A stretch of DNA of 64,000 nucleotides, from the NCBI RefSeq assembly GCF_046119375.1, contig NW_027362762.1, positions 453,840,001-453,904,000 of the forward strand. Direction: 5' to 3'. Source of the stretch: Phyllobates terribilis. Taxonomy: Eukaryota. Below are positions 1,347 to 44,671 of this stretch, piece by piece; the first letter of the stretch is position 1, and each line of letters starts with the position of its first letter. The position numbers and the translations under genes are program-made. The notes beneath the pieces are model-generated. The model had not been told where the DNA came from and ran no database searches. It worked only from the letters and a program-made list of their open reading frames with translations.

Positions 1347-2827
1347 TGTGATGAACCTGTAGCCGCCATCTTGGTAATGATAAATCATATCCAGGGATGG
1401 CCACACTTCAGCAGCCCCCACCCTTGGGACCTTCTGTTAAAACGTCAACTAGATAGTTTCCCCCCATCCAGGCTCCTGTAAGATAAGAAGCCTACTTAAC
1501 ACTTGAATGCTAGGAGCTTCAAAGACTTCGAGAGGAAACACAGCCAGCAGGGGGGGGTGCTTCGTCTATCTGTACCTGACCATTTGTCCCATAGGACTAG
1601 TTTCTTTGTCTGTCACAAGCATGGAGGCATAAGATATAGAAACATGAAAAGTACACGCATGTTGCATGGGATGGGCCAATAAAAAAATATCACGGCGTCC
1701 CGGAGCCATTGCGCACACAAGCCTCCGCGGTAGACGTTTGTACGTGCTCTGGAAGCCAAGATATAGCGCGGAGCCATTCCTGAGGACCGTATGGTATCAT
1801 AATTGATATCAAAAGGTCGGTTACGGCGGCCCGAATCCATGGGAACCCCTGGGGGTATCATGAGACCATCCCAGAAGAAGTTATTGGGTTCCATAGAATT
1901 TGGGCTTCTGATCGAAGTTAGACCTGAGGGTGGAGACTGAGCCAGCTGACCTCACCAGCAGTGGGCGGGACAGGGCAGGTAAGATAGCAGGACAGACAAG
2001 AGACAAGTCAGTCTTGACCCAAGAGTGGGGTGCTGAACATCTGAGCACCAGCTGAGGCCACCAAGGGGAGGAGCAGTTTGACCATGCGGTGGTAGGCCTC
2101 AGCCTGTAACAAAGAACCGTGCCTGCGATCGCAGAATCCTCTCCCTGCGTCACAAGAAAATCAAGAAACCGGTAACTGATATGCTGTGGTGATTCTGTGT
2201 GTTGTATTCCATTGTTGTATAGTTTAGCCTGACCTTATACCTGTGTATATTTAGTTGTATATCGTGTATCTAGTGTATTATTATAATCAATTACCTCAAG
2301 TAATTGTGGGCCTGCCTTTTATTCTGCATAACGAACGCACGTCCGTGTGAGCTCGGCTCAAGCCAAAAACGCTACCCAGGGTTGGTTCCTGACCCGATAT
2401 AGGCCCATTCACGGACTGGGCGTATATCTAAAATAGGGACTGGTGGCAGCATACCAACTGGGGATTGGGGAAGGCTGGTAGTGACGGTCGGAGGTTCAGA
2501 TATATATATTCCTGGCGCGGCCAAGGAAGATATATATACCACCCTCACTACAGAGGGCCCCGATACCCAGTAGGTTACAGGACAGTCTCTCTGGCGACCG
2601 CTTATCCTAGGTGCAGTTCCTTGACTGACCTGAGGCTAAGAGGGCGCTAGCGAGTTGTGCTGTGTAGTGACGTTACGGTTTAGTGACGTTGAAGGGATAA
2701 CACACTACCGTGTTCCCTGCGCTGGTTGCAGCTACCTGGCACTACTTTCTCTAGGTGCAGTACCTTGACTGACCTGAGAGGTAAGGGGGCGCCAGAGAGC
2801 TGCACCCACCGGCCGGCTTTCGTCACA
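1347..2827 (+). repeat. 5' LTR of Gmr1-like element
   Basis: TGTGATGAAC...TTTCGTCACA, direct repeat of 7766-9246. Confidence 0.97.
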
Positions 2828-2828
2828 T

Positions 2829-2849
2829 TGGTGGCAGAGCGGTGGGATT
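2829..2849 (+). promoter_or_regulatory. Primer-binding site, tRNA-Leu-like
   Basis: TGGTGGCAGAGCGGTGGGATT 1 nt after the LTR. It equals the complement of the vertebrate tRNA-Leu 3' end (TGGTGGCAGCGGTGGGATT, recalled) plus a 2-nt AG insertion. Confidence 0.8.
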
Positions 2850-2970
2850 GCAGAATAATAGTGTTGTGGGACCCCTACTCCCAGGCACTAAAGACTGCCA
2901 GTGGTAACTTCCACTGCTGGAGTCTTAAGGTCAGCCCAACGTTAGACGGTCAGGCTAAAAGTATAACAAG

Positions 2971-5900
2971 GTGTGTGCAGAGCGGGCTGCGGAGCGGGCT
3001 GCGGAGCGGGCTGCGGAGCGTGAAGCTGCAGAGCGCCGGGAGGCTGCGGAGCGTGAAGCTGCAGAGCGCCGGGAGGCTGCGGAGCGTGAAGCTGCAGAGC
3101 GCCGGGAGGCTGCGGAGCGTGCAGAGCGAGCTGCGGAGCGCCAGCACCAACTGGACCTGGCCCAGCGGGGGCTTCCGCTAGAGCAACCAACCCATCAGGA
3201 GACCAAGTCGTCCAAAGTCCGAGCTGAGGACTTCCCTCTACTGGAGAAGGATGGGGACCTGGACTCCTTTCTGGTGGCATTTGAACGGACCTGTCTTCAG
3301 CACCATCTGGCCCGGGATCAGTGGGCCAGATACCTGACCCCCCGTTTGAGGGGTAAGTCCCTGGATGCCTTGGGGGACTTACCTGCCGGGGAGGTACAGA
3401 ACTACGACTGCATCAAGCGGGCCCTGATCCGGCAGTACAACCTCACTCCCGAGTCGTACCGCCAGAAGTTCCGGAGCCTGCTGCGTGGCCCCAAGGACAC
3501 CTGGACCGATCATATGCGGGCGCTGTTGAGAGCCGCAGAGCACTGGACCTCGGGTCTAGCGCTTACTACCCGCCAGGAGGTCCAGGAACTGTTCGTCACG
3601 GAGCAGTTTTTGTGGAACTGCCCAGAGGACCTCCGACAGTTCCTCCGTGACCGAAAACCAACAGGGGCTTCTGCTACAGCCGCCCTGGCAGACGAGTATG
3701 CCAATAACAGGGCGCCTGAGCTGAAGAAGTCTGCCAGCAGCACCTGGAGAGGGGGTAAGCCCAGTCATGCCCCTGTTTCCCCGGCCCCTAGAACACAAGG
3801 GGTGTATCCCCCTGTTGCCCTCTCCAGGCAAGGACCAGACGTAAGACGTTGTCATCTATGCAACAAACCAGGACACTTTAGGGCTGAGTGTCCCCAGCGC
3901 CAAAAGACCCCATCCCAGTCCCAGAGAGCGCCCAATGTTTTGTGTGTGGGAGGGGGTGGTGGTAGGTCCCTGGACAACATCCAACCCGTCACCATAGGCC
4001 GTTCTGCGGTCATGGGACTGCGGGACACGGGCGCTGAACGAACACTGGTACGGCCTGAGGTGGTGTCCCCCCAGGACTTGGTACCAGGAAAGACTCTTTC
4101 CGTCTCCGGGGTTGGAGGCGTGGAGCCGGCACTTCCCGTTGCCATGGTGTATTTGGACTGGGGTGCCGGAAGGGGGATGCGGGAGGTGGGAGTAACGCCA
4201 AATATTTCCGCAAATGTTTTATTAGGGACCGACTTGGGGCGTCTAGTATCGCAGTATGTACCCTCTGAACCCCCAAGTTCGGCCCCCCAAGAGTGTATTG
4301 ATTTGTCTGCTGCTAATGCCAACCATGTTGTATGTAGTGTGCGTCCTGCTGAGGAGGAGGGAGTGAAACCTGAGGGTAACACCTGCACAGACACAACACA
4401 AACAGGGTTAGTGAAAGCAGGTGGGGAGTGTGGGGATGCCCGCAGAGGTGCTCAGCCGGCGTGCCGTGACCTCTTGTCCTCCGGTGAGGGAGGGGGCGGG
4501 CAGGATTCTGTAGAGGGAAGCTCAGGGATGGAGAGGGGGGCAGCTACCGGCAGTGTAGGGCTCCCAGGGGTATCCAGGCTGCTGAGTATAGGCCCACTGC
4601 AGGGGGAGGAACAGGCCATGGGAGGTGGGGGTGTCCCAAGAGAGGAGCCGCCAGGTAAGACCCCAGGGCAGGAGTTCCCCACATCCGAGATGTCCAAAGG
4701 CCTAGGAAGCCTGCCTGATCGGGCGGCTTGGTCAGAAACAGAGGGGAAGCAGGCACTACCCACGGTCACAGCGGTCATAGCCGCTGTCACCAGGAGTGGG
4801 AGCGCCGGAGCCCAAGGAGCCTTGCAGAGGTCCGACGGCTTCCCCACTTCTGACCAAGTGTCTGCCGGGTCAGACAGCGGCCAGGTGACATGCCCGGAGG
4901 GGCTGACAGAGGATGTGGCAGTTTCGTCGATTCTGGCCACATCAAGTCAGGAATTTCAGGCTGCGTTGGAAGCAGACGACAGCCTGAAAGCTCTCAAGGA
5001 ACAGGCGGCACAGCCTCCCATGGAGTCAGACTGCGAGCGTGTGGTCTGGGACCAGGGACGGCTGTACCGGGTAACGGTCCAGCAGGGTTCACCGGAGGCG
5101 TGGCCCAGGGACCGACAGTTAGTGGTACCCTATCCGTTCAGGGCGGAATTGTTGCGGATCGCACACGAGATTCCGATGGCCGGACACCTAGGGATCGCTA
5201 AAACCAAGGCCAGGATAGCTCAGCATTTCTACTGGCCTGGGATGGGAGCCGCGGTGGGTGCCTACTGCCGTTCGTGTGACACCTGTCAGAGGGTGGGGAA
5301 GGCGGGGCCGCTCCCCAAAGCCCCACTGGTAACTCTGCCAATCATCGAAGAGCCTTTCTCGAGGGTCGCTGTGGATCTTATTGGACCTCTGTCCACTCCC
5401 AGCCACTCCGGGAAATGCTTCATACTCACGGTAGTGGACTATGCCACCCGGTACCCGGAAGCGGTAGCTTTGTCGTCCATTCGGGCCGACAAGGTGGCTA
5501 CCGCCTTACTGGAGATCTTCTCCAGAGTGGGTTTCCCCCAGGAAATGCTCACCGACCGAGGGACCCAGTTCATGTCGCGGCTGATGGAGTCCCTCTGTAA
5601 GCAAATGCAGGTGCAACATCTGGTGGCCAGCCCGTATCACCCACAGACTAATGGCCTGTGTGAGCGGTTCAATGGCACCTTAAAGCAGATGCTTAAGATG
5701 TTGGTCGACTCCCACGGGAGAGACTGGGAGCGTTACCTCCCACACCTCCTATTTGCTTACCGGGAGGTTCCGCAGGCCTCAACGGGGTTCTCCCCCTTCG
5801 AGCTCCTGTACGGGCGACGGGTACGGGGCCCCCTGGCTCTGGTGAAGGAAGCATGGGAAGGGGATTTGGCCACCCCCGAGGTGTCGGTCATCGAGTATGT

Positions 5901-7758
5901 CGTGCGCCACCGGGACAGGATGATGGCCTTGGCAAAGCTGGTGCAGGACAATATGGCCCAGGCCCAGGCCGACCAGAAGCGGTGGTACGACCAGAATGCT
6001 TGTGAGAGGACCTACCAGGTGGGTCAAAAGGTGTGGGTACTGGTCCCCGTACCACAGAACAAGCTTCAGGCAGCCTGGGAAGGTCCCTACTTCGTGCACC
6101 AGAAACTCAATGCCGTCACCTATCTGGTCACCCTGGATCACGCCCGTGGAAGGAGGAAGGCCTTCCACGTGAACATGATGAAGGCTCATCATGAGCGGGA
6201 AGCGACTGCCCACCCAGTGTGCAACCTTCCCGAGGAAGGAGAGGTAGAAACCCTCCTGGATCTGCTCACCCAAGCCAAGGCGGGTGGGTCCATCGAGGAT
6301 GTGGGGGTTGGCCACCAGCTCACGGAGGACCAACGGTCCCAGCTGGGGACCACCCTGCACCCCTTCCGGGGGCTGTTCAGCAGCCTGCCCGGAAGGACTG
6401 AGATGGCTGTCCACGACGTGGACACTGGCGATCACCCGCCGATCCGGCGTTCAGCATATCGGGTCTCTTTCGAGGTGCAGGGAAACATGCGCCAAGAGAT
6501 AGACGAGATGCTGAAGCTGGGGGTGATCCAGGCATCCAGCAGCGCGTGGGCCTCGCCTGTAGTCCTCGTACCAAAGAAGGACCGAACTACACGGTTCTGC
6601 GTGGACTACCGGGGGCTCAACGCTGTAACGGCCACCGATGCGTTCCCCATACCACGCATCGATGACCTGCTCGATCGGATGGCCGGGGCTAAGTACCTGA
6701 CCATCATGGATCTGAGCCGGGGGTACTGGCAGATTCCTCTGACCCCCGCGGCAAGGGAACGCTCTGCCTTTATCACCCCTTTTGGACTGTACGAGTCCAC
6801 AGTGATGCCATTCGGCATGAAGAATGCCCCTGCCACTTTTCAGCGGATGGTCAATACGCTGCTTGAGGGACTTGAAGGGTACGCGGCTGCGTACTTGGAC
6901 GATATTGCAGTCTTCAGTCCCACTTGGGAGGATCACCTAGAGCACCTGCGGCAGGTGCTCGGTCGGATCCACCGGGCAGGCTTGACCATCAAGCCGGAAA
7001 AGTGCCAGCTGGGCATGAGTGAGGTCCTCTACCTGGGTCACCGGGTAGGCGGGGGGGTTCTGAAGCCAGAACCGGGGAAAGTGGATGCCATCGCATCCTG
7101 GCCCACTCCTAGGACCAAAAAGCAGGTGATGTCCTTCTTGGGGACCGCCGGGTACTATAGGAGGTTCGTCCCACACTATAGCACCCTGGCCAAGCCCCTG
7201 ACGGACCTCACCAAGAAGAAGCTGCCCGTCGCAGTCGACTGGACAGTCGCCTGCGAGACAGCTTTCGGGGCACTCAAGGCCGCCCTAAGTAGCTCCCCTG
7301 TACTGCAAGCTGCCGACTTCGACCGGCCGTTTGTGGTACAGACCGACGCCAGTGACTTTGGCCTCGGTGCTGTGCTAAGTCAGGTCAACACGACAGGCCA
7401 GGAACATCCTGTCTTGTACCTGAGCAGGAAGCTACTGCCCCGGGAGGTGGCTTACTCCACGGTGGAAAAAGAATGCCTGGCAATTGTATGGGCCCTGCAG
7501 CGTCTGCAGCCCTACTTGTACGGGAGCCATTTCACCGTGGAGACGGACCACAACCCCCTCAGCTGGTTACACACAGTCTCTGGGTCGAATGGCAGGTTGC
7601 TACGCTGGAGCCTCGCTCTCCAGCAGTACCACTTCTCCATTCGCCACAGAAGAGGCCGTGACCACGGTAACGCTGACGGGTTATCCCGGCAAGGGGAGGG
7701 TGCAGAAGGACGCACGGGGGAACACAGGAATGTGCTACCCCCTCGCGCCCTCGTATAG
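2971..7758 (+). CDS. Gag-Pol polyprotein, 1595 aa (SCAN-like capsid, CCHC knuckle, protease, integrase, RT, RNase H)
   Basis: CHLCNKPGHFRAEC (3850-3891); protease DTG near 4024; integrase HHCC near 5163-5285 and D/D/E near 5374/5554/5662; RT YLDD 6892-6903; RNase H TDAS near 7341. The ORF opens on GTG and the first in-frame ATG is at 3514. Confidence 0.93.
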   Translation: MCAERAAERAAERAAEREAAERREAAEREAAERREAAEREAAERREAAERAERAAERQHQLDLAQRGLPLEQPTHQETKSSKVRAEDFPLLEKDGDLDSFLVAFERTCLQHHLARDQWARYLTPRLRGKSLDALGDLPAGEVQNYDCIKRALIRQYNLTPESYRQKFRSLLRGPKDTWTDHMRALLRAAEHWTSGLALTTRQEVQELFVTEQFLWNCPEDLRQFLRDRKPTGASATAALADEYANNRAPELKKSASSTWRGGKPSHAPVSPAPRTQGVYPPVALSRQGPDVRRCHLCNKPGHFRAECPQRQKTPSQSQRAPNVLCVGGGGGRSLDNIQPVTIGRSAVMGLRDTGAERTLVRPEVVSPQDLVPGKTLSVSGVGGVEPALPVAMVYLDWGAGRGMREVGVTPNISANVLLGTDLGRLVSQYVPSEPPSSAPQECIDLSAANANHVVCSVRPAEEEGVKPEGNTCTDTTQTGLVKAGGECGDARRGAQPACRDLLSSGEGGGGQDSVEGSSGMERGAATGSVGLPGVSRLLSIGPLQGEEQAMGGGGVPREEPPGKTPGQEFPTSEMSKGLGSLPDRAAWSETEGKQALPTVTAVIAAVTRSGSAGAQGALQRSDGFPTSDQVSAGSDSGQVTCPEGLTEDVAVSSILATSSQEFQAALEADDSLKALKEQAAQPPMESDCERVVWDQGRLYRVTVQQGSPEAWPRDRQLVVPYPFRAELLRIAHEIPMAGHLGIAKTKARIAQHFYWPGMGAAVGAYCRSCDTCQRVGKAGPLPKAPLVTLPIIEEPFSRVAVDLIGPLSTPSHSGKCFILTVVDYATRYPEAVALSSIRADKVATALLEIFSRVGFPQEMLTDRGTQFMSRLMESLCKQMQVQHLVASPYHPQTNGLCERFNGTLKQMLKMLVDSHGRDWERYLPHLLFAYREVPQASTGFSPFELLYGRRVRGPLALVKEAWEGDLATPEVSVIEYVVRHRDRMMALAKLVQDNMAQAQADQKRWYDQNACERTYQVGQKVWVLVPVPQNKLQAAWEGPYFVHQKLNAVTYLVTLDHARGRRKAFHVNMMKAHHEREATAHPVCNLPEEGEVETLLDLLTQAKAGGSIEDVGVGHQLTEDQRSQLGTTLHPFRGLFSSLPGRTEMAVHDVDTGDHPPIRRSAYRVSFEVQGNMRQEIDEMLKLGVIQASSSAWASPVVLVPKKDRTTRFCVDYRGLNAVTATDAFPIPRIDDLLDRMAGAKYLTIMDLSRGYWQIPLTPAARERSAFITPFGLYESTVMPFGMKNAPATFQRMVNTLLEGLEGYAAAYLDDIAVFSPTWEDHLEHLRQVLGRIHRAGLTIKPEKCQLGMSEVLYLGHRVGGGVLKPEPGKVDAIASWPTPRTKKQVMSFLGTAGYYRRFVPHYSTLAKPLTDLTKKKLPVAVDWTVACETAFGALKAALSSSPVLQAADFDRPFVVQTDASDFGLGAVLSQVNTTGQEHPVLYLSRKLLPREVAYSTVEKECLAIVWALQRLQPYLYGSHFTVETDHNPLSWLHTVSGSNGRLLRWSLALQQYHFSIRHRRGRDHGNADGLSRQGEGAEGRTGEHRNVLPPRALV

Positions 7759-7765
7759 GGGGAGG

Positions 7766-9246
7766 TGTGATGAACCTGTAGCCGCCATCTTGGTAATGAT
7801 AAATCATATCCAGGGATGGCCACACTTCAGCAGCCCCCACCCTTGGGACCTTCTGTTAAAACGTCAACTAGATAGTTTCCCCCCATCCAGGCTCCTGTAA
7901 GATAAGAAGCCTACTTAACACTTGAATGCTAGGAGCTTCAAAGACTTCGAGAGGAAACACAGCCAGCAGGGGGGGGTGCTTCGTCTATCTGTACCTGACC
8001 ATTTGTCCCATAGGACTAGTTTCTTTGTCTGTCACAAGCATGGAGGCATAAGATATAGAAACATGAAAAGTACACGCATGTTGCATGGGATGGGCCAATA
8101 AAAAAATATCACGGCGTCCCGGAGCCATTGCGCACACAAGCCTCCGCGGTAGACGTTTGTACGTGCTCTGGAAGCCAAGATATAGCGCGGAGCCATTCCT
8201 GAGGACCGTATGGTATCATAATTGATATCAAAAGGTCGGTTACGGCGGCCCGAATCCATGGGAACCCCTGGGGGTATCATGAGACCATCCCAGAAGAAGT
8301 TATTGGGTTCCATAGAATTTGGGCTTCTGATCGAAGTTAGACCTGAGGGTGGAGACTGAGCCAGCTGACCTCACCAGCAGTGGGCGGGACAGGGCAGGTA
8401 AGATAGCAGGACAGACAAGAGACAAGTCAGTCTTGACCCAAGAGTGGGGTGCTGAACATCTGAGCACCAGCTGAGGCCACCAAGGGGAGGAGCAGTTTGA
8501 CCATGCGGTGGTAGGCCTCAGCCTGTAACAAAGAACCGTGCCTGCGATCGCAGAATCCTCTCCCTGCGTCACAAGAAAATCAAGAAACCGGTAACTGATA
8601 TGCTGTGGTGATTCTGTGTGTTGTATTCCATTGTTGTATAGTTTAGCCTGACCTTATACCTGTGTATATTTAGTTGTATATCGTGTATCTAGTGTATTAT
8701 TATAATCAATTACCTCAAGTAATTGTGGGCCTGCCTTTTATTCTGCATAACGAACGCACGTCCGTGTGAGCTCGGCTCAAGCCAAAAACGCTACCCAGGG
8801 TTGGTTCCTGACCCGATATAGGCCCATTCACGGACTGGGCGTATATCTAAAATAGGGACTGGTGGCAGCATACCAACTGGGGATTGGGGAAGGCTGGTAG
8901 TGACGGTCGGAGGTTCAGATATATATATTCCTGGCGCGGCCAAGGAAGATATATATACCACCCTCACTACAGAGGGCCCCGATACCCAGTAGGTTACAGG
9001 ACAGTCTCTCTGGCGACCGCTTATCCTAGGTGCAGTTCCTTGACTGACCTGAGGCTAAGAGGGCGCTAGCGAGTTGTGCTGTGTAGTGACGTTACGGTTT
9101 AGTGACGTTGAAGGGATAACACACTACCGTGTTCCCTGCGCTGGTTGCAGCTACCTGGCACTACTTTCTCTAGGTGCAGTACCTTGACTGACCTGAGAGG
9201 TAAGGGGGCGCCAGAGAGCTGCACCCACCGGCCGGCTTTCGTCACA
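7766..9246 (+). repeat. 3' LTR of Gmr1-like element
   Basis: Preceded by PPT AGGGGGAGG (7757-7765) overlapping the pol stop codon; direct repeat of 1347-2827. Confidence 0.97.
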
Positions 9247-10104
9247 TTAACCATGCTAACCTACTCTATCAAAACACTTCCATTAGCCAGATATGTCGAA
9301 CTGACCCTAAGGATTTCCAACAGATCAGATATTTCCCCATCCAAGGGTTATAAAATGGGTGTCTGGCCAGCTGCTACATGCTTCAAATGTGGCGGCGCCC
9401 AAGCAGATATTACATATTGCTTGTGGTTGTGTAAGGGAATACTGGCTGAGGATCAGAGACTACCTCTCTGCCCTTTGACATATTCTGGGGCTTTTTTGTC
9501 TGGGTGGATCCCAATAAATACAGATGTGACAAAGGCTCTAAAGAAATTCTACCTTTAGTATCAGCAGCTGTAAAAAAAAGCGGTCATCCAATCTTGAATT
9601 TCTCCCCAGGCTTCACCACACAAACTATTTCTAGAAAAATTAACCTTAAACAACCAAGAGTAAAAAAAATTTTTTTAATACATGGGAAAGTTTAATTGGT
9701 ATTCTGTCCTCTAACATCCAGAATAAAATCAATACATATTTCTTCAACACAACATGGTACCTAGAAAGGGAGACAACTGAAGACCTATCCAAATAACCTA
9801 ACTAATACACCTTGAAATATTGGTGCGTGCAGAGAACCATGGACCAAACCCCCCTTCCTTCTGCCCCATCCCTCTGTTGTTGTTTCCTTTTCTTTTCCTC
9901 TTCTTAGTTGTTTGCTTATTTGTATGTTTATAGTAAAAAAAAAAGCCATTTAAAATTGTTTTATATTGTCTACATGCATTTAGTATTTATTGCGCAAACG
10001 TTTTATGTAATTCTCTGAACATATCAACCCTGGGTTGCTAGTTTGTTTTTCTTTTATTGATTATAATCTAAAATTTCAATAAAAAGAAGTTAAACAAAAA
10101 AAAA
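9247..10104 (+). mobile_element. L1-type LINE 3' end, part 3 (ORF2 Cys/His knuckle, 3' UTR, poly(A))
   Basis: ELTLRISNRSDISPSKGYKMGVWPAATCFKCGGAQADITYCLWLC matches the L1 ORF2 C-terminal CxxC...HxxxxC-type region; AATAAA 10078-10083; A-tail to 10104. Confidence 0.75.
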
Positions 10105-33760: not shown

Positions 33761-35425
33761 GTAATACCTTTATTAGAATCATAAGAGTAATACAAAAAAT
33801 AAAACTAATTGAAAAAAATATAAACTGGTTCATTTGTAATAGTGCAGTAATAAAAATGGTAATACATTTGTAAGTCCTAGTCCCAGTAAATTAGTGTAGG
33901 GAGTATAATTTGTGGAGAAAGGTTGAACTCGATGGACCTAGGTCTTTATTCAACCTACGTTACTATGTAAAATTGATACCAATAAAAACGTCAACTCGTC
34001 CCGGAAAAAACAAGCCCTTACATGACTGTCGGCCAAAATACGGAAAGATTATAGCTCTCAAATATGGTGATGCAACAACCAAAAAAAAAGTGTCTTTTAG
34101 TGTGTGACAGCTGCCAAAAAAAAACAATATAAATCTGTTATTGCTGTAAATGCATCGACCCGAAGAATAAAGTCGTCTAATCACTTATACCGCATGAGGA
34201 AAAGCGTAAAAAATAAATAAAACCAATTCTTCACCTGCTGTTGATTTTTTTGATTTTGCCTCCCAAAGATCGCAGTAAGGCTCGGCTCATATCTATCCTG
34301 CACTCTACACTGAGTGCTTACACTGGGGTTTCTGTGTAAACCTCTGAAATACGTGATTGACGGAACCCCCAGCGGAAGATTCCCTATAATGAGGCAGATG
34401 GAGACACTGTGAATGCAGTCTGATCTATGATCCTCCGGTGTCCTTTTTAGGAGTGCATAAAAGTGCGGTCCGCCACAGTTTTGTGCACTTCTGAAAAGAA
34501 GGAAAACACTGAACAGAGGCCACATGGAGTCCAGAGTAACTCTGCTGCCTCATTACAGTGAATGGACCCCTCGGGGGTTTCATCTGAATCACGGCACTCT
34601 GAGATTTAAATGGAAACCCCAAAGTAAGTGCTCAGCATAGAGCGCAGGATAAATGTGTTCCAAAATGTTATGTAAAATGTTCCCAACAAAAGCTTCAAAT
34701 CAATCCACAAAAACAGCAAGTCCCCACTCAGGTGTGTCATCTGTTAACGGAAATATAGGGGACGTCCACGTTACTGGTAGCAGAAAGACTCTGGAAAAGC
34801 GAAATGGCTCCTCGCCCCCAAAATAAATCCAGTGAATTCTGCGCTCCCAAATCCAAATGCCCCTCTCCCTTCAGAGCCCGAGTGTGCCTAAACCACATTT
34901 AGCATAGACATATTTGGCAGTATGGCTAAACTGTACTGTACAGCCACATAATGGGTATTTCTACATTAAGCAGATTGTGGGACAAATTTTTGTGCCATTT
35001 TTACCCATTTCCCTGTGTGAAAATTAAAATCTGGGGCTAAAAGAAAATGTTGGTGGTAGAAATGTAATTATTTTTTCTTCACTGCCCAATGGTATAAAAT
35101 TCTGTGACCCACCTGTAATGTCAATATGATCACTGCCCCCTTAGATGAATTCATTGAGAGGTGTGGTTTGTAAAATGGGGTTCTGATGTTCTAGCACCTC
35201 AGGGTCTCTCCCAGTGGGTCATGGCATACACAAACCATAACAGTAAAAGACGTAGTTACTTACCGGTAACGGGATTTCTCGGAACCCATGACGGCACCAC
35301 GGAGAGAGGGGATATGTCATTCAAGGACAAGAAACCTACAGATAAAAAGGGCGGCACCTCTCTCCCGCATCAGTTGGTTTATAGAGCATCGAGAGGACCG
35401 CCAGGTTAGTAACACAAATTTTTAC

Positions 35426-35428
<3 letters not shown>

Positions 35429-35480
<52 letters not shown>
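35429..35480. repeat. (TA)26 microsatellite
   Basis: Pure TA run between the DIRS 3' ITR and the ICR. Confidence 0.95.
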
Positions 35481-35484
<4 letters not shown>

Positions 35485-35576
35485 TTTTGAAAAAGGAGCT
35501 TGCCAGACACACCCTGTGACTATACAAAGGCAACAATCAAATGTGCGCACCCATGTGTGAAGGGAGGGAATGTACG

Positions 35577-35659
35577 GGTGCCGTCATGGGTTCTGAGAAA
35601 TCCCGTTACCGGTAAGTAACTACGTCTTTCTCTTTCCCCATGACGGCACCACGGAGAGA
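35577..35659 (-). promoter_or_regulatory. DIRS internal complementary region (ICR)
   Basis: 35577-35629 is the reverse complement of 35246-35298 (1 mismatch); 35627-35659 is the reverse complement of 45243-45275 (2 mismatches); the halves join over TTT. Confidence 0.92.
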
Positions 35660-35677
35660 TTTGCAGAGAAGTGTGGA

Positions 35678-36951
35678 TTAGGGAGGGACCACCGCTTCCA
35701 GAACCCTTCTGCCAAAGGTAAGGTCTGAAGACGAGGTTAGATCTAGCCGGTAGTGTTTAAAGAATGTGGAAGGAGAAGACCAGGTCGCCGCTCTACATAT
35801 CTGTTCGATAGAAGCCCCAGCCTTCTCCGCCCAGGAGGCTGCCACTGCCCTAGTCGAGTGAGCCTTTAGGCCCGCAGGCGCGGTTTCCCCGCTTGAGGCG
35901 TAAGCCAGGGAGATGGCGTCCCTTATCCACCTTGCCAGGGTGCTCTTGGAAGCCTTCCGTCCCTTCCGAGATCCCTGGAAGCACGCAAAGAGAGACCTAT
36001 CCTTCCTACACTCTTGTGTGGCCTCTAAGTATTGTATAATGCACCTCCTGACGTCTAAGATGTGAAGGGTCTCTTCCCCCTTGTTTTTTGGGTCTGAACA
36101 AAAGGAAGGGAGGGTGACCTCCTGTGACCTGTGGAAGAGGGATCCCACCTTAGGAAGGTACGCTGGGTCAGTCCTAAGTGTCACCCTATCTTCTAGGATT
36201 TGCGTAAAGGGGGGCCCTGCTGATAAGGCTAGTATGTCACTAATCCGACGTGCCGATGTGAGGGCTACTAGAAGGGACGTCTTAAGGGACAGGATTTTAA
36301 GAGACGCGTCCGCTAGAGGTTCAAGGGACACCTGGTCAGAGCCGAAAGCACAAGATTTAAGTCCCAAGGAGGCGCATTCCAGGAGGGGATGGGCCTGGAC
36401 CTATGGGATGCCCTGATGAACCTGGAGACCCATCTATCCCTAGCCAGGTCGCAGTTATACAGGGCTCCCAGCGCCGCCACCTGAACCTTCAGAGTGCTTG
36501 TGGCCAACCCCTGCTCCAACCCCTTTTGAAGAAACTCCAAGATAGCAGTGATGGTGGACTCCCCCACTACTTCCGACCCCGTGAAAGAAAGAAATCTTCT
36601 CCAGGTTTTACCGTAGAGTTTGGTAGTTACGGGTTTCCTACTCTGCAGTAAGGTGGAGATTAAATTGGGGGAGAACCCTCTATCCCTCAAGAGCGCCCTC
36701 TCAAACTCCAAGCTGTCAGGTGCAGGTTTGCTACCTGTGGGTGAAGGACTGGTCCCTGGGACACCGGATCCGGAACTTCCGGAAGGACCCAGGGGTCGGA
36801 AGTGGACATTATCCTTAGCCAGGAAAACCAAGGCCTCCTTGGCCAGAAGGGGGCGATCAGGATCATGTTTACCTCGTCTTCCCTGATCTTCCTCAGAACT
36901 GCCGGAATGAGAGTAATCGGAGGAAAGGCATACGCTAGCTGGTGGTTCCAT
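35678..36951 (-). pseudogene. DIRS tyrosine recombinase (frameshifted near 36340)
   Basis: ORFs 36313..36951 (SAM-like N-terminus, STLKVQVAAL) and 35678..36367 (R...HSTR...AATW...HY catalytic motifs). Confidence 0.9.
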
Positions 36952-37972
36952 GGGATCGAGAAGGCATCTAGCGCCGCTGGGTTCCCCCTGGGGTCGATCG
37001 AGCAGAACGTGTCCACTTTTTGTTTTGCCAGTTGGCGAATAGGTCTATGGAGGGGTGCCCCCAAACCCTCGTGATTTTGTCGAACACTAGCTGGTTCAGC
37101 TCCCACTCGCCCTGTCTCAGCTGGGTCCTGCTCAGGAAGTCCGTCGTGACATTCTCTGTCCCTTTTATGTGGAGTGCCGATAGAGACTCTAGATTCTTCT
37201 CTGCTACCCGGAGGATGGAACTTGACACCCGTAGAAGAGAATCGGACCGGGTACCCCCCTGGTGATTTAGGTATGCCACCATTACCCTGTTGTCCGAAAA
37301 CACTCTCACGTGGTGCCCTCTTAGCGTGTCTAGAAATTCTAAGAGGCCATACTTCACCGCCAGAAGTTCCTTCATGTTGGAGGATACCCCTTCCAAATCC
37401 TTCGACCAGACCCCCTGAGCCACTTGGTCATTTAGATGAGCCCCCTGGGGCTTGCATCCGTCGTTAGAATCTGAGATACTGGTATTGCCCATGGGACGCC
37501 TCTGCCTAGATTGTCCCCCTCTGTCCACCATGTCAGGGAAAGCAAAGTTTTTGATAAGGTCAGCCGACCTTCTAAGTGCCGTCAGTGACCTTTCCGCCCC
37601 CAAGATCTCCCATTGTAAGCCCCTGGTGTGCAACTGAGCCCAGCGGACCCCCGGGATGCAGGCAGTCATGGAGCCTAGGAGGGACATTGCTCCCCTCAGT
37701 GTCATATCGGGATGGTTCTTCACGTAGGACACTCGGGCCATCATGCTTTGGATTTTCTCTGCCGGGAGACGGCATTCCTGACTCCTTGAATCTAACAGGA
37801 TACCCAAGTACTCTTGCACTTGATCTGGTTCCAGCCTGGATTTTTTCAGATTCAGAAGCCAGCCTAAACTCGTCAAGGAACCCATGACTTTTGCTAGATG
37901 GTCCTTGCAATGGCTGAACGAGTTGCCTATAATAAGTAGATCGTCCAGGTACGGGACTATTAGGATATTCCT
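36687..37972 (-). pseudogene. DIRS RT C-terminus, RNase H and N6-adenine methyltransferase-like domain (frameshifted)
   Basis: PYLDD; TTDAS; SSNMKELLAV; VFSDN; DLFA and AYAFPP...IAPFWPRRPWF. Confidence 0.88.
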
Positions 37973-37977
37973 CTCCC

Positions 37978-39337
37978 TGTTATGCACACGCCCGGGCTAA
38001 GCGGCGTGTGCGTGTGATTGTAGTGATTCCACTGGACCGTGCCGGAGAGTGAATGCCTGGAGGGGCGTGACTAAGTATTCACCCGATCCGACCAGGGTCG
38101 CACGACGGCATACGACGCCAGTGCACCAAGGAGGAACCGAGCAGAGGGACCAGGTGCTACTCCAGGACAGACCCCGGACACGGCTGTTGACCCACACTGG
38201 GGAATACAGGAACAGGCTGGTAGGCTGGCACACAGACTGGTGGGTATAGGCAGGCACGACTGGTATGCAGGCAGGCGGGTATGCAGGCAGGGGGGTAAAG
38301 GCAAGCACAGCTAGAGTGCAGACAGGGAGGCACTAGCAGGTAGGAACACAGGCGGGATAGGACCCAGTACACACCGGGACTCAGGAACAATACAGGCAGA
38401 GGGTTACAGGCAAGCACAGCTAGAGTGCAGACAAGGCTGAGCAGGGAGGACAGGGCTCTGTTCACACGGAACAGACAGGAAGGGAAAGACAGAGCCAGAT
38501 ACTCACACAGTACTTGCAGAGACAACAAGCAGGAGTTAGGTACGAGTTCAGACTCTGCAGAAAAAGGAAGGGAACGGACATAGAGGCAAAACAGGTAAAG
38601 GACAGGAGAGAGTTCAGACTGGAACTGAGTGTACGGAGGAGACCGACACTGCAGAGGGATACAGGAGCGGGTCTGGGAATACGGCCCCCAGAGAGGCGGA
38701 ACGAACAGGCAAGGAGCGTGTTCAGACAGGACAGACCAGACGCAGGAGCGGGTCTAGGAAATCGGCCACTAGAAGGCGGAACGAACAGGCAAGGAGCGTG
38801 TTCAGACAGGACAGACCAGAGAACACAAAAAGGACACAGTTCAGACACGGGAGCTGAAACCGCAAAGCAGGAGACATACAGGACTCAGTTCAGACACGGG
38901 AGCTGATACCGCAAAGCAGGAGACATACAGGACACAGTTCAGACACGGGAGCTGATACCGCAAAGCAGGAGACATACAGGACTCAGTTCAGACACGGGAA
39001 CTGACACAAAAAGCAGGAGACAAGAGACGGGACCTGGCACCTTCAGAGTGCAAGCACACACTGAAGGAAAACACTATGCTCAGGCAGGGATAGAAGGGAG
39101 CTGCTGAGCTATATACCAAGTGACAGACAGCAATAGGCTGAGGACGCACAAGGGGTGTGACCCACAGCAGGTACAAAAGGCAGGAAGTGATCGGGCGCCG
39201 CCCTTAAGCAGCAGAAACAGACACAAACAGACAGCATGGAGGGAAGCCAGAGAGACATTCTGGACAGGAGATCAAGTGCGCCCTCTTGCACAGTGGGAGA
39301 TGGACCACCATGCAAGGACGCCGCCAGGTATGTTACA
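37978..39337 (-). repeat. 3' LTR of the Gag-only element
   Basis: Follows the PPT on the minus strand; contains a 49-bp x4 array (38832-39021) and an 81-bp x2 array (38662-38821). Confidence 0.95.
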
Positions 39338-41013
39338 GTACCTCCCCCCTTACGCCCCCTCTTCTTCAGGCCTGCCAGAATCTTCCGCAGGGAATTCGAG
39401 GACCAGTCGTTCACTGGGTTGGAGGGGGACAGAGACTTGAGGGTAATCTCTGCTTCGAGGTACATCTTGTCAAGCTCACAGGAAAAAATAGACGGGTTAT
39501 CAGGTACATAATGAGGAAAAGTCACTGTCTCTTTGTTATCTGGTGGTATCCCGGAGGATTCAGGAAACAACTGGAGGTCCTCCGCCGGGTCAGAAGAGTG
39601 CAGAGGCTCAGAGAAAACAACTGCTTCAGAGTACACTAGGTCGGACTCACTGGAGGAAGCAGGCGAGGTATCGGGTACCGAGTATAGGAAAGTCTCTGTC
39701 CATTCACCACCAGGTGGCACCCCGAAGGGTTCTGGAGACAGCTGGCGGTCCTCCGCCTGGTCAGAGGGGTGTAGAGACTCACGGGTAACCTCTGCTTCAG
39801 AGTACACTAGGTCGGACTCACTGGAGGAAGCAGGCGAGGTATCGGGTACCGAGTATAGGAAAGTCTCTGTCCATTCACCACCAGGTGGCACCCCGAAGGG
39901 TTCTGAACACAACTGGAGGTCCTCCGCCTGGTCGGAGGGGTGTAGAGACTCGGGAGTAACCTCTGCTTCGGAGTACACTAGGATGGACTCACTGGACGAA
40001 GCGAGCGAGGTATCAGGTACAGAGTATAGGAGAGTCTCTGTCCTTTCGCTACCAGGTAGCACCCCGAAGGGTTCAGGAGACAACTGGAGATCCTCCGCCT
40101 GGTCGGAGGGGTGTAGAGACTCGGAGGTAACTACCACTTTGGGGTACCCATTGTCAGGCTCACAGGACGAAGCGGACAAAGTATTGTGTACCGGGTGTAG
40201 AGAGGTCTCTCTCCATTTGTCATCGAGTGGTATCCCGGAGGGTTCAGGAGGCAACAGGGGATCCTCCGCCAGGTAGTAGAGGTGCACAGACTCTGAGGTA
40301 ACCACAGCTTTGGAGCATCCTTGGACATGCACACCGGTTAAAGAGAGAGAAGCATCTGATGCCGGGTGCAGGAAGTTCTCCTGTGTGGAGTCTGGATGGG
40401 CAGAAGTCTCTTCGGGTAGGAGAACTGATGCACTACCCACGCACATTACCCATTGGGGTTTCTCCGGGATACAGGGAGATGAAGCTTCAGTAGGGACTTC
40501 AAGGTTGGGGTCAGGAGGTCTCAGGGAGGACAGACCCTGGCGTGACGGCTTGCCTCTAAGTCTAGCACGTCTGGACTGCCTCTTGAGGTTGAGAGAAGTA
40601 TTCCGGAAAGCGTAGTCACCCTGTGAGGATTCTGGGTGGGCAGTAGTCTCATTGGGCTGGAGGACTATTGCGCTACCCACACACATTACCCATCGGGGCT
40701 GCTCCGGGATATTGGGAGGTGAAGCTTCAGCAGGAGCCTCCGGGTTAGGATCATCGAAGACCATTAGAAAGGCCACCAGGAAGGCCATTAGGTCCCGGAG
40801 GATCGGATCCTGTGTTTCATATAGGGGGTTGATCCATTCCAAGGCATCACCCGCCAGGTAAGACATAATAAAGGCCACTTTAGCCCAATCGGAAGGAAAA
40901 TAGAGAGGGTAGGCCTTAAAGTGTAGCATGCATTGCTCCACAAATGCACGACACTGTCTTGGATCCCCATAGTAACGTGGCGGATCCGCAGGAACGAGAG
41001 CTGATAGATCCAT
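39109..41013 (-). CDS. Sushi/LDOC1-like Gag capsid fused to acidic Pro/Ser-rich 57-aa repeats, 634 aa
   Basis: ATG at 41013; PPRYYGDPRQC...AKVAFIMSYLAGDALEWINPL...FDDP resembles the RTL/LDOC1/PEG10-type capsid. No CCHC, protease, RT, RNase H or integrase motif. Confidence 0.85.
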   Translation of the reverse strand: MDLSALVPADPPRYYGDPRQCRAFVEQCMLHFKAYPLYFPSDWAKVAFIMSYLAGDALEWINPLYETQDPILRDLMAFLVAFLMVFDDPNPEAPAEASPPNIPEQPRWVMCVGSAIVLQPNETTAHPESSQGDYAFRNTSLNLKRQSRRARLRGKPSRQGLSSLRPPDPNLEVPTEASSPCIPEKPQWVMCVGSASVLLPEETSAHPDSTQENFLHPASDASLSLTGVHVQGCSKAVVTSESVHLYYLAEDPLLPPEPSGIPLDDKWRETSLHPVHNTLSASSCEPDNGYPKVVVTSESLHPSDQAEDLQLSPEPFGVLPGSERTETLLYSVPDTSLASSSESILVYSEAEVTPESLHPSDQAEDLQLCSEPFGVPPGGEWTETFLYSVPDTSPASSSESDLVYSEAEVTRESLHPSDQAEDRQLSPEPFGVPPGGEWTETFLYSVPDTSPASSSESDLVYSEAVVFSEPLHSSDPAEDLQLFPESSGIPPDNKETVTFPHYVPDNPSIFSCELDKMYLEAEITLKSLSPSNPVNDWSSNSLRKILAGLKKRGRKGGGTVTYLAASLHGGPSPTVQEGALDLLSRMSLWLPSMLSVCVCFCCLRAAPDHFLPFVPAVGHTPCASSAYCCLSLGI

Positions 41014-41153
41014 CTGGACGGTGCGTAATTTCGCCTGGAACTCAGCTAAGAGAAAAAAAATTTTATTTATTTATTTTAATGCATATATTCGCTGGAAAAC
41101 TTCTCAGAGGGCGAAGGCCGTGGGGCTCAACGGGAACCATGGCCTGAGCATGC

Positions 41154-42513
41154 TGTTATGCACACGCCCGGGCTAAGCGGCGTGTGCGTGTGATTGTAGT
41201 GATTCCACTGGACCGTGCCGGAGAGTGAATGCCTGGAGGGGCGTGACTAAGTATTCACCCGATCCGACCAGGGTCGCACGACGGCATACGACGCCAGTGC
41301 ACCAAGGAGGAACCGAGCAGAGGGACCAGGTGCTACTCCAGGACAGACCCCGGACACGGCTGTTGACCCACACTGGGGAATACAGGAACAGGCTGGTAGG
41401 CTGGCACACAGACTGGTGGGTATAGGCAGGCACGACTGGTATGCAGGCAGGCGGGTATGCAGGCAGGGGGGTAAAGGCAAGCACAGCTAGAGTGCAGACA
41501 GGGAGGCACTAGCAGGTAGGAACACAGGCGGGATAGGACCCAGTACACACCGGGACTCAGGAACAATACAGGCAGAGGGTTACAGGCAAGCACAGCTAGA
41601 GTGCAGACAAGGCTGAGCAGGGAGGACAGGGCTCTGTTCACACGGAACAGACAGGAAGGGAAAGACAGAGCCAGATACTCACACAGTACTTGCAGAGACA
41701 ACAAGCAGGAGTTAGGTACGAGTTCAGACTCTGCAGAAAAAGGAAGGGAACGGACATAGAGGCAAAACAGGTAAAGGACAGGAGAGAGTTCAGACTGGAA
41801 CTGAGTGTACGGAGGAGACCGACACTGCAGAGGGATACAGGAGCGGGTCTGGGAATACGGCCCCCAGAGAGGCGGAACGAACAGGCAAGGAGCGTGTTCA
41901 GACAGGACAGACCAGACGCAGGAGCGGGTCTAGGAAATCGGCCACTAGAAGGCGGAACGAACAGGCAAGGAGCGTGTTCAGACAGGACAGACCAGAGAAC
42001 ACAAAAAGGACACAGTTCAGACACGGGAGCTGAAACCGCAAAGCAGGAGACATACAGGACTCAGTTCAGACACGGGAGCTGATACCGCAAAGCAGGAGAC
42101 ATACAGGACACAGTTCAGACACGGGAGCTGATACCGCAAAGCAGGAGACATACAGGACTCAGTTCAGACACGGGAACTGACACAAAAAGCAGGAGACAAG
42201 AGACGGGACCTGGCACCTTCAGAGTGCAAGCACACACTGAAGGAAAACACTATGCTCAGGCAGGGATAGAAGGGAGCTGCTGAGCTATATACCAAGTGAC
42301 AGACAGCAATAGGCTGAGGACGCACAAGGGGTGTGACCCACAGCAGGTACAAAAGGCAGGAAGTGATCGGGCGCCGCCCTTAAGCAGCAGAAACAGACAC
42401 AAACAGACAGCATGGAGGGAAGCCAGAGAGACATTCTGGACAGGAGATCAAGTGCGCCCTCTTGCACAGTGGGAGATGGACCACCATGCAAGGACGCCGC
42501 CAGGTATGTTACA
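41154..42513 (-). repeat. 5' LTR of the Gag-only element
   Basis: TATATA at 42291-42286 (minus); predicted transcript start near 42261. Confidence 0.95.
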
Positions 42514-43110
42514 CTCCCTCAGATGGGCCATAACCTCTGCCACCACCTTTGTGAAGACTCTTGGGGCTATTGCTAACCTGAAGGGGAGAGCCGTATATTG
42601 GTAGTGCCTTATTGTGCCCCTTATCGGTATCGCTACCCTCAGGAATTTTTGGTAGTCTCTGTGTATGGGGACATGATAATATGCGTCCTTCAGATCCAGG
42701 ACAGACATAAAACAGCCTGGGAACAACAATTTCACAGATGTTTTTATTGACTCCATCTTGAACGAATGAAGTTTCAGAACCCTGTTCAATTTCTTTAGAT
42801 TTACAATAGTCCTGAATGTTCCATCCGGTTTCTTCCTGAGGAATAGAGGGGAGTAGAACCCATCGCCTACCTCCTGAGCTGGGACTTCCCAAAGGACTGC
42901 CTTGTCCACTAGGCCTAGAATCTCTTGTTCTAGAGCCAACTGCTCTACCTCTGAAGACCTCACAGGGGTTACTATGAAATTTGGACGGGGAGTGGAGAGG
43001 AACTGGAATCTTAGCCCCGATTTTATCAGGTCTAAAATCCAGCGCACGTTTGATATTTTTTCCCAGGCCGGGAGGAAATGGAGAAGCCTCCCTCCCACCT
43101 GGGGCTGCCT
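42514..43110 (-). pseudogene. DIRS RT N-terminal half
   Basis: VGGRL...FYSPLFLRKKPDGTFRTIVNLKKLN...LDLKDAYYHVPI...ALPF..APRVFTK. Confidence 0.92.
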
Positions 43111-43148
43111 TTCATTGGGCGGGTTTCTTATTGTCACTAGGGGGCCTG

Positions 43149-44671
43149 TTAAACAAAAACCCCTTGGCTTTTCTCTGCCTCCTGTCCTCCCACCTGTCCT
43201 GATCTTGGGGGGGGTCTCCTTCGCATGAATTTCCTACTCCAAAAAGATTTCCTAAAAGAAGTACCAGAGAGGACCGGGAAGCCTTTTTTGTTATCCCCGG
43301 CCTTGTCCAGGATATCATCCAGAGTAGACCCGAATAAGAATTCTCCCTCACACGGGATGGAGCACAGCCTAGACTTCGTTTGGAGGTCGCCTGGCCAGCA
43401 TTTGAGCCAGAGGGCCCGCCTAGCTGCGTTTGAAAAACTCCCAGCCCTAGCTGCCAGCCTGATAGAGTCGGCTGAGGCGTCAGCCAGAAAAGCCGCTGCG
43501 CCCTTCATCACTGGGATGGAGTCTATTATATCATCCCTTGAGGCTTTATCCTTCAACTGCGCTTCTAGTTGGTCTAGCCAGACCATCAAAGATCTGGCCG
43601 TGCATGTGGCTGCCACCGCGGGTTTTAACACCCCCCCCCCTGCCGCCTCCCAAGCTCCTTTAAAAAAGGAGTCAGCTTTCTTATCCATAGGGTCTTTAAG
43701 CACCCCCATGTCCTCAAATGGCAGGGAAAACTTTCTAGAGGCCTTGGCTATCGCAACGTCAATTTTAGGCGCCTTCCCCCAGAAGGAGCACACAGGGTCC
43801 TCAAAGGGGTATTTCCTTTTGGGTGACAACAACCCTTTCCTCTCTGGTTTTCTCCATTCCCTCTTAATCAGAGATTGTACTTGATCATTAAGAGGGAAGG
43901 ATCTCTTTTTCTTCTGTCCTAGGCCACTAAACATTATGTCCTGGATAGACTTTTTAGGGTGAGGATCAACGAACCCCATAGTAGACCTAACCACCTTAAT
44001 CAAGGTATCGGTTCCATCTGTAGGGAAACAGCTACGACCCCCGTCCCCTGAAGACGACTAAGACGATGAATCGGAGACTACTCCCTCCTCGTCTGAACCA
44101 CTGGACTCCAGCACCGGGGATAGGTGTCTAGTTTTCCCTTGTTTCCCCCCCCCCTTCCGCAGGGACTTAAAGGTGTCCTCCACCTGAGATTTAATCAGGG
44201 ATCTGAGTTTGGAGGCAAACTTAGGGGTCTCCTCACAGATAATTTGCTCGATGCATGAGTTGCACTGTCTCTTTTGCCATGCAGTGGGCAGATCCGCTGC
44301 GCAAAGCGCGCAGGCCCTGTGCTTGGACTTGCCCGTACTCTTCCTTCCCTGAGAAGAAAAGAGAGGGGGGTCTCAAGTTACAAGTGAGCTTTCACGAAGA
44401 TCACTTACCGACCCGTAGTAAGAGGGAATACCGGATTTGAAGAGGAACCCGTTCCAGTAGCTGGGTCCTTCATCGAGGCTGACGCCGCGCTGGAGTCCTT
44501 GCCACGTTGTGAAGACCTGCCAGAACGCCCGCTTCCTCCGTCACCTTGCCGTGAAGGGCCGCTGGAGGATCCTTTCATACGCTTCCTCTGAGGCGATGGT
44601 GAGTGGGGGTGCAGGGACTGCACCTCCTGCTCACTCATAGCTGCAGAGTGCCAGAGAATGCCAGGAAGCAC
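43149..44671 (-). pseudogene. DIRS ORF1/gag-like (disrupted)
   Basis: ORF 43149..44003 (WGKAPKIDVAI...LKDPMDKK...RRALWL...GEFLFG) is typical of vertebrate DIRS1 ORF1; the upstream portion is broken. Confidence 0.75.

Follow-up and report, generated by a model that had tools for sequence, protein, structure and literature searches.

A 64,000-nucleotide stretch of Phyllobates terribilis DNA (contig NW_027362762.1, positions 453,840,001 to 453,904,000 of the forward strand; hereafter the window) carries, at positions 37978-42513 on the minus strand, a 4536-nt long terminal repeat (LTR) retrotransposon without pol, which almost certainly belongs to a family of the Tf1/sushi chromovirus group that is non-autonomous, has been active recently and is present in many copies. 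Its single open reading frame (ORF) keeps only the capsid's N-terminal lobe, the second lobe and the CCHC knuckle having been lost, and this lobe is likely to be under moderate purifying selection at the protein level. We tentatively propose that the element is a mobile satellite retrotransposon, whose sole product would be a selected half-capsid adaptor that docks in the capsid of a helper and loads its own RNA, and that lobe exchange and duplication may reflect an arms race with that helper; taken as a whole, this proposal is possible rather than probable.

The 5′ LTR (41154-42513) and the 3′ LTR (37978-39337) have the same sequence, with 0 differences over 1360 nt and TGT...ACA termini, and consist of a U3 of about 250 nt and a long pyrimidine-rich R/U5 with tandem repeats of 49, 80 and 16 nt. 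All features of the element given here and below lie on the minus strand. The insertion is flanked by a perfect 5-bp target-site duplication (TSD) at 37973-37977 and 42514-42518 (CTCCC on the plus strand), and the 1816-nt interior ends with a polypurine tract (PPT; core at 39341-39351, also found in the candidate helper family described below) immediately ahead of the 3′ LTR. A pair of LTRs ending in TG...CA, a TSD, a PPT and a primer binding site (PBS) thus mark it as an LTR retrotransposon, and the identical LTRs, perfect TSD, PPT and 1.8-kb interior reported in an initial annotation of the window were all borne out. The same annotation took the element to have just transposed; the LTR identity fits this as an upper bound on divergence of about 0.2% (our own arithmetic) and carries no date. 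Its description of the interior as almost entirely one open ORF is right as to a single open frame, which is stop-free from 41070 to 39109 (653 aa; 634 aa from the Met at 41013, the ORF at 39109-41013), but this ORF does not end within the interior, crossing the PPT and running on for ~230 nt into the 3′ LTR. No CCHC, protease (PR) or reverse transcriptase (RT) motif was found, and the window copy has no RT or integrase (IN) with chromodomain of the kind that marks an autonomous chromovirus. The earlier statement that no trace of PR, RT, RNase H (RH), IN or a CCHC knuckle is left therefore stands for motifs and domains and fails for a short stretch, as the final ~17 codons of the interior (39343-39390, overlapping the PPT region) preserve a leftover of the C-terminal tail of integrase (71% over 17 aa, E 0.003), in the pol frame of the helper.

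The predicted protein consists of a capsid lobe followed by a disordered, acidic tail. Pfam matched aa 26-105 of the 653-aa frame to DUF4939 (E 9.7e-8) and gave no other match; the lobe itself (40744-40992, about aa 8-90, five helices) aligns to the first lobe of the helper Gag. AlphaFold, proposed at the outset as a check on the N-terminal region, returned a capsid-lobe fold with five confident helices between aa 18 and 86 and disorder past aa 90. The best structural match of this model was to residues 41-121 of dArc1 (Z 9.1, rmsd 2.7, 75 aligned), and the N-terminal domain of Ty3 also matched (Z 7.2, rmsd 2.5, 74 aligned); C-terminal capsid lobes score alike in structure, so the identity of the lobe rests on its position in the helper Gag. 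Similarity to autonomous Gag stops at the end of the first lobe, a second-lobe profile found no match in the window copy or in the related copy L197 (control E 1e-33), and aa 106-559 gave no significant BLASTP match to helper Gag and Pol (best E 0.11). The lobe is followed by a linker predicted to be disordered (40285-40743), which has duplicated ~80 aa internally and contains a basic patch at aa 145-155 whose resemblance to the Gag C-terminus was marginal (44 of 1000 shuffles), and then by 4.5 in-frame acidic Ser/Pro/Glu repeats of 171 nt (57 aa) each (39542-40310; 49 D+E vs 7 K+R in 255 aa), the number of which differs among copies. A derivation of the 57-aa repeat from the SH3 region of integrase was considered and found unsupported (355-751 of 1000 shuffles). 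Wider searches reached the lobe region and little else: a full HMMER scan gave 1,389 matches, the best 150 of which cover only aa ~2-126 (best 56% identity), a 5.8-billion set held no homolog at E<=0.001, the PDB was matched by profile (Ty3 capsid, E 0.014) and not by single sequence, and Foldseek returned none at E<=0.001. The first atlas match of the long ORF was FAM127A-like (0.88), which we treat as a lead only. The label of a Gag-only element is thus sound in that the single ORF derives from Gag and overstated in that only the N-terminal capsid lobe is kept; since second lobe and knuckle are absent, the earlier claim that the element supplies its own capsid has to be given up.

Copies of this structure are abundant in the 10.6-Gb host genome. 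Genome-wide there are 5,473 exact matches to the LTR-PBS junction and 15,919 to the LTR end (controls 0), which disposes of the single-copy outcome that would have told against a mobile family. Of 1,776 candidates from a search at the DNA level, the best 40 were scored and were all 99-100% identical, and 150 matches scored in a protein search were all 98-100% identical, 130/149 of their frame lengths falling in 57-aa steps. Twenty copies were fetched, taken from the top 40 of the DNA search: both LTRs (0-5 mismatches) and the same structure were present in 19/20, perfect TSDs in 18/20 elements (window copy included), and the target sites were different in 20/20. The count of full-structure copies with distinct TSDs called for in the initial annotation thus came out high, and an element without pol that is dispersed in so many copies of one structure qualifies as non-autonomous. 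An unbiased check on the first 29 junctions of contig C1 agreed, with a partner LTR end 3.0-4.4 kb away in 28/29; the spacing in autonomous elements is 5.2-5.4 kb, and the shorter distance is too short for gag-pol. The 19 near copies are 4268-5379 nt long, with LTRs of 1312-1718 nt, the wider range of LTR length being 1.3 to 2.2 kb through the U5 tandem repeats. In the public runs, contig depth of LTR sequence was 20-100x that of the interior. Four LTR-PBS junctions ~4.1 kb apart on one strand form a tandem array at G000:C1:86492389-86504726, and further junction pairs lie at C1:29113098 and C1:109129787. The family may extend beyond one species, because a run whose label names a different organism (X9) yielded contigs that cover the interior with variant letters in 29/30 bins.

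The cis signals place the family in the Tf1/sushi group. A TATA box at 42286-42291 (LTR position 223, the same position in 20/20 elements) is followed, 30 nt after its start, by the predicted RNA 5′ end, a 10-nt self-primer at 42252-42261. The PBS (41142-41151) is complementary to it, interior bases 3-12 matching LTR positions 253-262 with a chance of 0.006 in shuffled LTRs, and this layout is kept among copies, with a mismatch in 1/19; the element holds no tRNA-type PBS. A fold of the RNA from the chosen (predicted) start pairs self-primer with PBS in both the minimum free energy and centroid structures. Autonomous chromoviruses of the same genome carry the same layout, and a self-priming PBS is given as a signature of Tf1/sushi chromoviruses in the accessible text of 10.1101/2022.12.06.519325. 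Given the predicted start, the PBS would pair with the RNA's own 5′ end, as in the Tf1/sushi lineage.

A gag-pol chromovirus family of the same genome, represented by loci L189-L194, is the probable helper. The PPT pattern, excluding the junction of the window copy itself, matched 2,234 places; of the first 30, which were examined, 28 lie in elements with pol (27 of one family, 1 of another) and 2 in half-capsid relatives, and a pattern with a longer spacer gave 1 match, a member of the half-capsid family. The helper encodes Gag with CCHC followed by PR-RT-RH-IN-chromodomain. It shares with the element a PPT/LTR junction of up to 47 nt (96% in locus L148), its PBS and start context resemble those of the element, and some members share a U5 stretch at 72-84%. 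Of the helper copies retrieved, seven in all, some retain gag and pol frames that are long and open and others are broken; the LTRs of young copies are 98-99.8% identical over the part compared, and the helper junction pattern has 18,109 matches (a pattern count alone). In a tree of 25 lobes, all of this genome, a single group (99/100) unites the 8 half-capsid lobes and joins the helper at 96/97 on a long stem (0.81; one row drew a long-branch warning), and by this tree and DUF4939 the Gag is of sushi type and groups with chromoviral Gag. The search for an autonomous partner thus led to a gag-pol family with matching cis ends, and the initial view of the element as a parasite of an autonomous sushi-like element holds in that a non-autonomous Tf1/sushi family exists beside a matching gag-pol partner, the exact helper being a matter of probability. 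Another chromovirus family, with a 1499-aa product, came from the DUF4939 search and was rejected as the closest partner (39% identity; no DNA match in 19/20 loci). That family (L081-L085, L089, L100) is a second young chromovirus of this genome, with a single gag-pol frame, near-identical LTRs and a self-priming PBS that resembles the element's.

To judge from its relatives, the family did not come about by a single fresh deletion but was deleted and remodelled step by step. An older, broken relative, L198 (G000:C1:42904700-42910700; 75-78% DNA identity), aligns collinearly, within a single frame, to helper Gag, to the region of the protease and to the end of the integrase, and its remnants of the knuckle region, protease and chromodomain were each reached in 0 of 1000 shuffles. 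The chromodomain remnant is weaker in L197 (5 of 1000 shuffles) and L120 (24), and undetectable in L112 (205 of 1000 shuffles) and the window copy; these remnants argue for stepwise deletion. The possibility raised at the outset, that the element is a single copy with a simple internal deletion of a pol element, therefore fails on both counts, although descent from such an element by an old, heavily remodelled deletion is what the remnants point to.

The frame has been kept open. From ATG to PPT the ORF is open in 32/37 copies (L047 and L114 were left out of this count for lack of a junction), and the large indels in the ORF, of 171, 195 and 279 nt, preserve the frame, vs 16/52 of the indels in the LTRs. 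Between the window copy and L197, 217 aligned sites are different and neither copy contains a stop, an outcome for which a neutral simulation gave a probability of about 0.003 (0.09-0.13 for the closer L112 and L118). These figures bear on the simplest alternative, an ordinary defective family derived from few source copies, in which the ORF would be an unselected leftover that is open since the copies are young. The 98-100% identity of near copies would fit such a family, as would the broken state of the older 75%-identical relative and of 5/37 copies; yet subfamilies 14% apart both keep the frame, large indels respect it and the lobe bears purifying signals, so that this alternative is largely refuted and we regard it as improbable.

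Signs of selection concentrate in the lobe. By a counting method with kappa fixed at 3, over 81 lobe codons, dN/dS was 0.35-0.48 with a confidence interval (CI) below 1 in 5/10 within-family pairs, the shifted-frame control giving 0.95-2.65 and the repeats 0.59-0.84 (7 pairs). In 28 double-lobe copies, variants of the first lobe shared by at least two copies were 8 synonymous to 6 nonsynonymous, vs 2 synonymous to 19 nonsynonymous or stop among private variants (p=0.006), whereas the linker of double-lobe copies showed no such contrast (p=1). The outcome that the initial annotation named as refuting, disrupted ORFs with dN/dS near 1 in other copies, thus did not arise: 32/37 ORFs are open and lobe dN/dS lies below 1 in the deeper comparisons, while in 5/10 pairs its CI spans 1.

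The double-lobe copies form a subfamily of their own. At least 150 copies (98-100% to the query) carry a second, diverged lobe, 119/150 of them in frames of 640 aa or more. Against the lobe at window 40744-40992, three single-lobe copies (L115, L118, L122) were seen to carry segments typical of the first lobe of double-lobe copies. Such mosaic lobes suggest recombination between subfamilies. The second lobe raises the question of whether the protein might form its own shell or capsomers, the added lobe replacing the lost C-terminal one to give a bilobed capsid. Two lobes lie in one frame at 28/30 loci examined, both tandem lobes fold in prediction, and the lobe model resembles N- and C-terminal capsid lobes equally. 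However, the linker between the lobes is flexible and of low confidence (pTM 0.49), the single-lobe subfamily spreads equally well, no nucleocapsid knuckle is present, and RTL8 alone forms no particles according to the accessible text of PMC11684626; we therefore consider a self-made shell very improbable.

The mechanism that we favour is that of a Tf1/sushi chromovirus derivative which evolves as its own family and would rely for its copying, in trans, on a related gag-pol chromovirus resident in the same genome. Its RNA would start ~30 nt after the TATA box and fold its 5′ end onto the PBS, and helper enzymes would reverse-transcribe and integrate it. The half-capsid protein, unable to build a shell, would join helper capsomers by lobe-to-lobe contacts, as RTL8 does with PEG10, and would favour the packaging of the RNA that encodes it, co-translationally and perhaps via the basic patch. 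Such a cis packaging advantage, to which the selection pattern points, would explain why a selfish element purges mutations from its lobe and has duplicated it. For the adaptor role of the half-capsid protein, argued by analogy, we would put the chances at about even; co-assembly with helper particles, and their hijacking or restriction as suggested in the initial annotation, are what such a protein may do. A complex prediction for the lobe with the helper capsid scored 0.18 (mark 0.34), alignments not being used.

Several observations weigh against this mechanism. Four AUGs in R/U5 and three in the interior precede the Met of the ORF, so that translation would need splicing, re-initiation or internal entry; the protein itself is a prediction from the frame. 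One of the upstream frames, of 25 codons (41063-41140), starts where the helper Gag start codon lies and is a decayed Gag N-terminus, and it is followed by a splice-acceptor-like pyrimidine tract with YAG (41046-41062) that is kept in 34/34 copies; no splice joint was seen in the contigs of 4/10 listed runs, contigs being uninformative on starts and strand. The 32 nt from the acceptor-like AG to the Met (window 41014-41045) keep their length in 32/34 copies despite compensating single-base indels. As to the partner, the helper lobe is only 50-57% identical to that of the element and U3 similarity is weak (z 2.9-6.1), which, with the long stem, makes a closer unseen or a different partner possible. 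As to selection, the open fraction is inflated because some copies were picked for their similarity or their long frames; the other 5/10 lobe pairs gave dN/dS of 0.43-1.00 (1.00 for window vs L118); lobe pairs are non-independent and the lobes look mosaic; constraint on the lobe is much weaker than that between helpers (0.15); and variants of the single-lobe subfamily were too few for the shared-vs-private test. PPT slippage shifts the LTR-encoded tail of the ORF in several copies, and this tail is therefore probably unimportant.

The linker, too, is neutral at the amino-acid level though kept open (dN/dS 0.82-1.26 in 7 pairs, no stops), which would suit a different account, in which the frame stays open for RNA-level reasons, translation shielding the transcript from decay or routing it to assembly sites while the protein does little, and in which the low lobe dN/dS stems from folding constraint against a toxic product or from recombination with older Gag copies. 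Repeat number varies freely and tail frameshifts are tolerated, as this account would have it, and within one pair the dS of the lobe (0.35-0.46) far exceeds that of the linker (0.12), pointing to segment exchange. It sits poorly with a shared-vs-private contrast that is found in the lobe and absent in the linker, with the preservation of the lobe fold, with the spread of the duplicated lobe to at least 150 copies and with the grouping of all lobe variants together, apart from the helper. On balance we hold an RNA-level explanation to be unlikely.

A protein that enters helper particles could also poison them. In the accessible text of PMC11684626, RTL8 forms no particles alone, binds the N-terminal lobe of PEG10, is incorporated in PEG10 particles and lowers their release, and in yeast truncated capsid proteins act in restriction (PMC10951436, in the text accessible). 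With the same half-capsid design as RTL8 and a bulky acidic tail that could disturb a lattice, the frog protein might thus restrict or compete with the helper in a dominant-negative way, so that the helper transposes less or its enzymes are set free, and may be heading to domestication. However, the element depends on working helper particles, a factor acting in trans poorly explains the purging of mutations in transposing lineages, and the helper is abundant and has young copies; restriction as the main role appears rather less plausible still than the RNA-level account, and we return to the adaptor as the preferred reading.

The element inserted into another mobile element, splitting the RT gene of a DIRS-like element, with RVT_1 matched by Pfam in both flanks. 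The downstream part of this RT/RNase H gene lies at 36968-37972 and its upstream part at 42519-43233, both on the minus strand and outside the LTR element. The DIRS-like element spans ~35250-44100 (minus strand) and includes a recombinase-like ORF at 35678-36400 besides RT/RNase H. Elsewhere in the window, a young gypsy element at 1347-9248 (plus strand) has a single 1599-aa ORF, whose Gag part carries SCAN and CCHC and in which integrase precedes RT, an order known as Gmr1-like; its LTRs share an identical run of 1483 nt. No tRNA genes were found in the window with bacterial settings.

Among known systems, the closest in layout is TR-GAG of plants, described in the accessible text of PMC4350172 as a non-autonomous LTR element with a Gag-derived ORF and no pol. 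The frog family resembles it in LTRs, PBS, PPT, 5-bp TSD, many copies (at least two being required) and a single Gag-like ORF without PR, INT, RT or RH. It exceeds the TR-GAG length of <=4 kb, at 4536 nt and in all 19 near copies, although such size classes are treated as a continuum in a recent paper (PMC13570524, in its accessible part). TR-GAG1 has a Gag precursor with zinc finger, a tRNA PBS and a length of <4 kb, and no partner for it is reported in that text of PMC4350172; the frog element, in contrast, has half a capsid without a knuckle, primes itself, measures 4.3-6 kb, lives in an animal host and has a probable partner. With TR-GAG on record, the initial proposal of an undescribed class was too strong; literature searches, whose scope did not extend to Repbase, Dfam and subscription journals, turned up no description of a mobile half-capsid family in animals. 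With the Tf1/sushi helper the element shares the self-priming PBS, PPT/LTR junction, 5-bp TSD, lobe and integrase tail remnant; it differs in lacking second lobe, knuckle, PR, RT, RH, IN and chromodomain and in bearing ~1.3 kb of linker and acidic repeats without match in the helper. The Ty1 products p22/p18 and DRT2 are likewise truncated capsid proteins made by or derived from a retrotransposon, but they correspond to the C-terminal lobe of a copia-type Gag, and restriction by them is demonstrated (PMC10951436, same part), whereas the frog protein is an N-terminal lobe in a separate mobile element and is known here from sequence.

The protein itself is nearest to the mammalian genes RTL8 (FAM127/CXX1) and LDOC1, which, as far as the accessible texts of PMC11684626 and PMC10516033 go, also have sushi-type ancestry and only the N-terminal capsid lobe (DUF4939), its fold kept and followed by non-capsid sequence. 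These RTL/SIRH genes are fixed host genes with orthologs and without LTRs, whereas the frog family is mobile, in thousands of copies, and its half-capsid design likely arose independently of theirs. The family makes up a visible share of a 10.6-Gb genome, its full junctions numbering ~5,000 and its LTR ends roughly 16,000. In several mammalian genes the N-terminal lobe is all that is left of the capsid, and why and when such a truncation arose is the question that this family addresses; PMC10516033, in the same part, proposes truncation after gene birth. Here one assembly contains the half-capsid architecture in thousands of copies that are young and mobile, together with a probable helper, an intermediate of greater age and a subfamily in which the lobe is duplicated, which opens the question to population-scale sequence analysis and binding assays. 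The family suggests a route by which a retrotransposon parasite may get its RNA packaged by means of a protein, beyond an RNA signal alone. If the adaptor reading is true, the architecture of RTL8 and LDOC1 can arise in selfish elements before domestication and need not be cut down after gene birth, and satellite-style capsid parasitism would exist among animal LTR retrotransposons.

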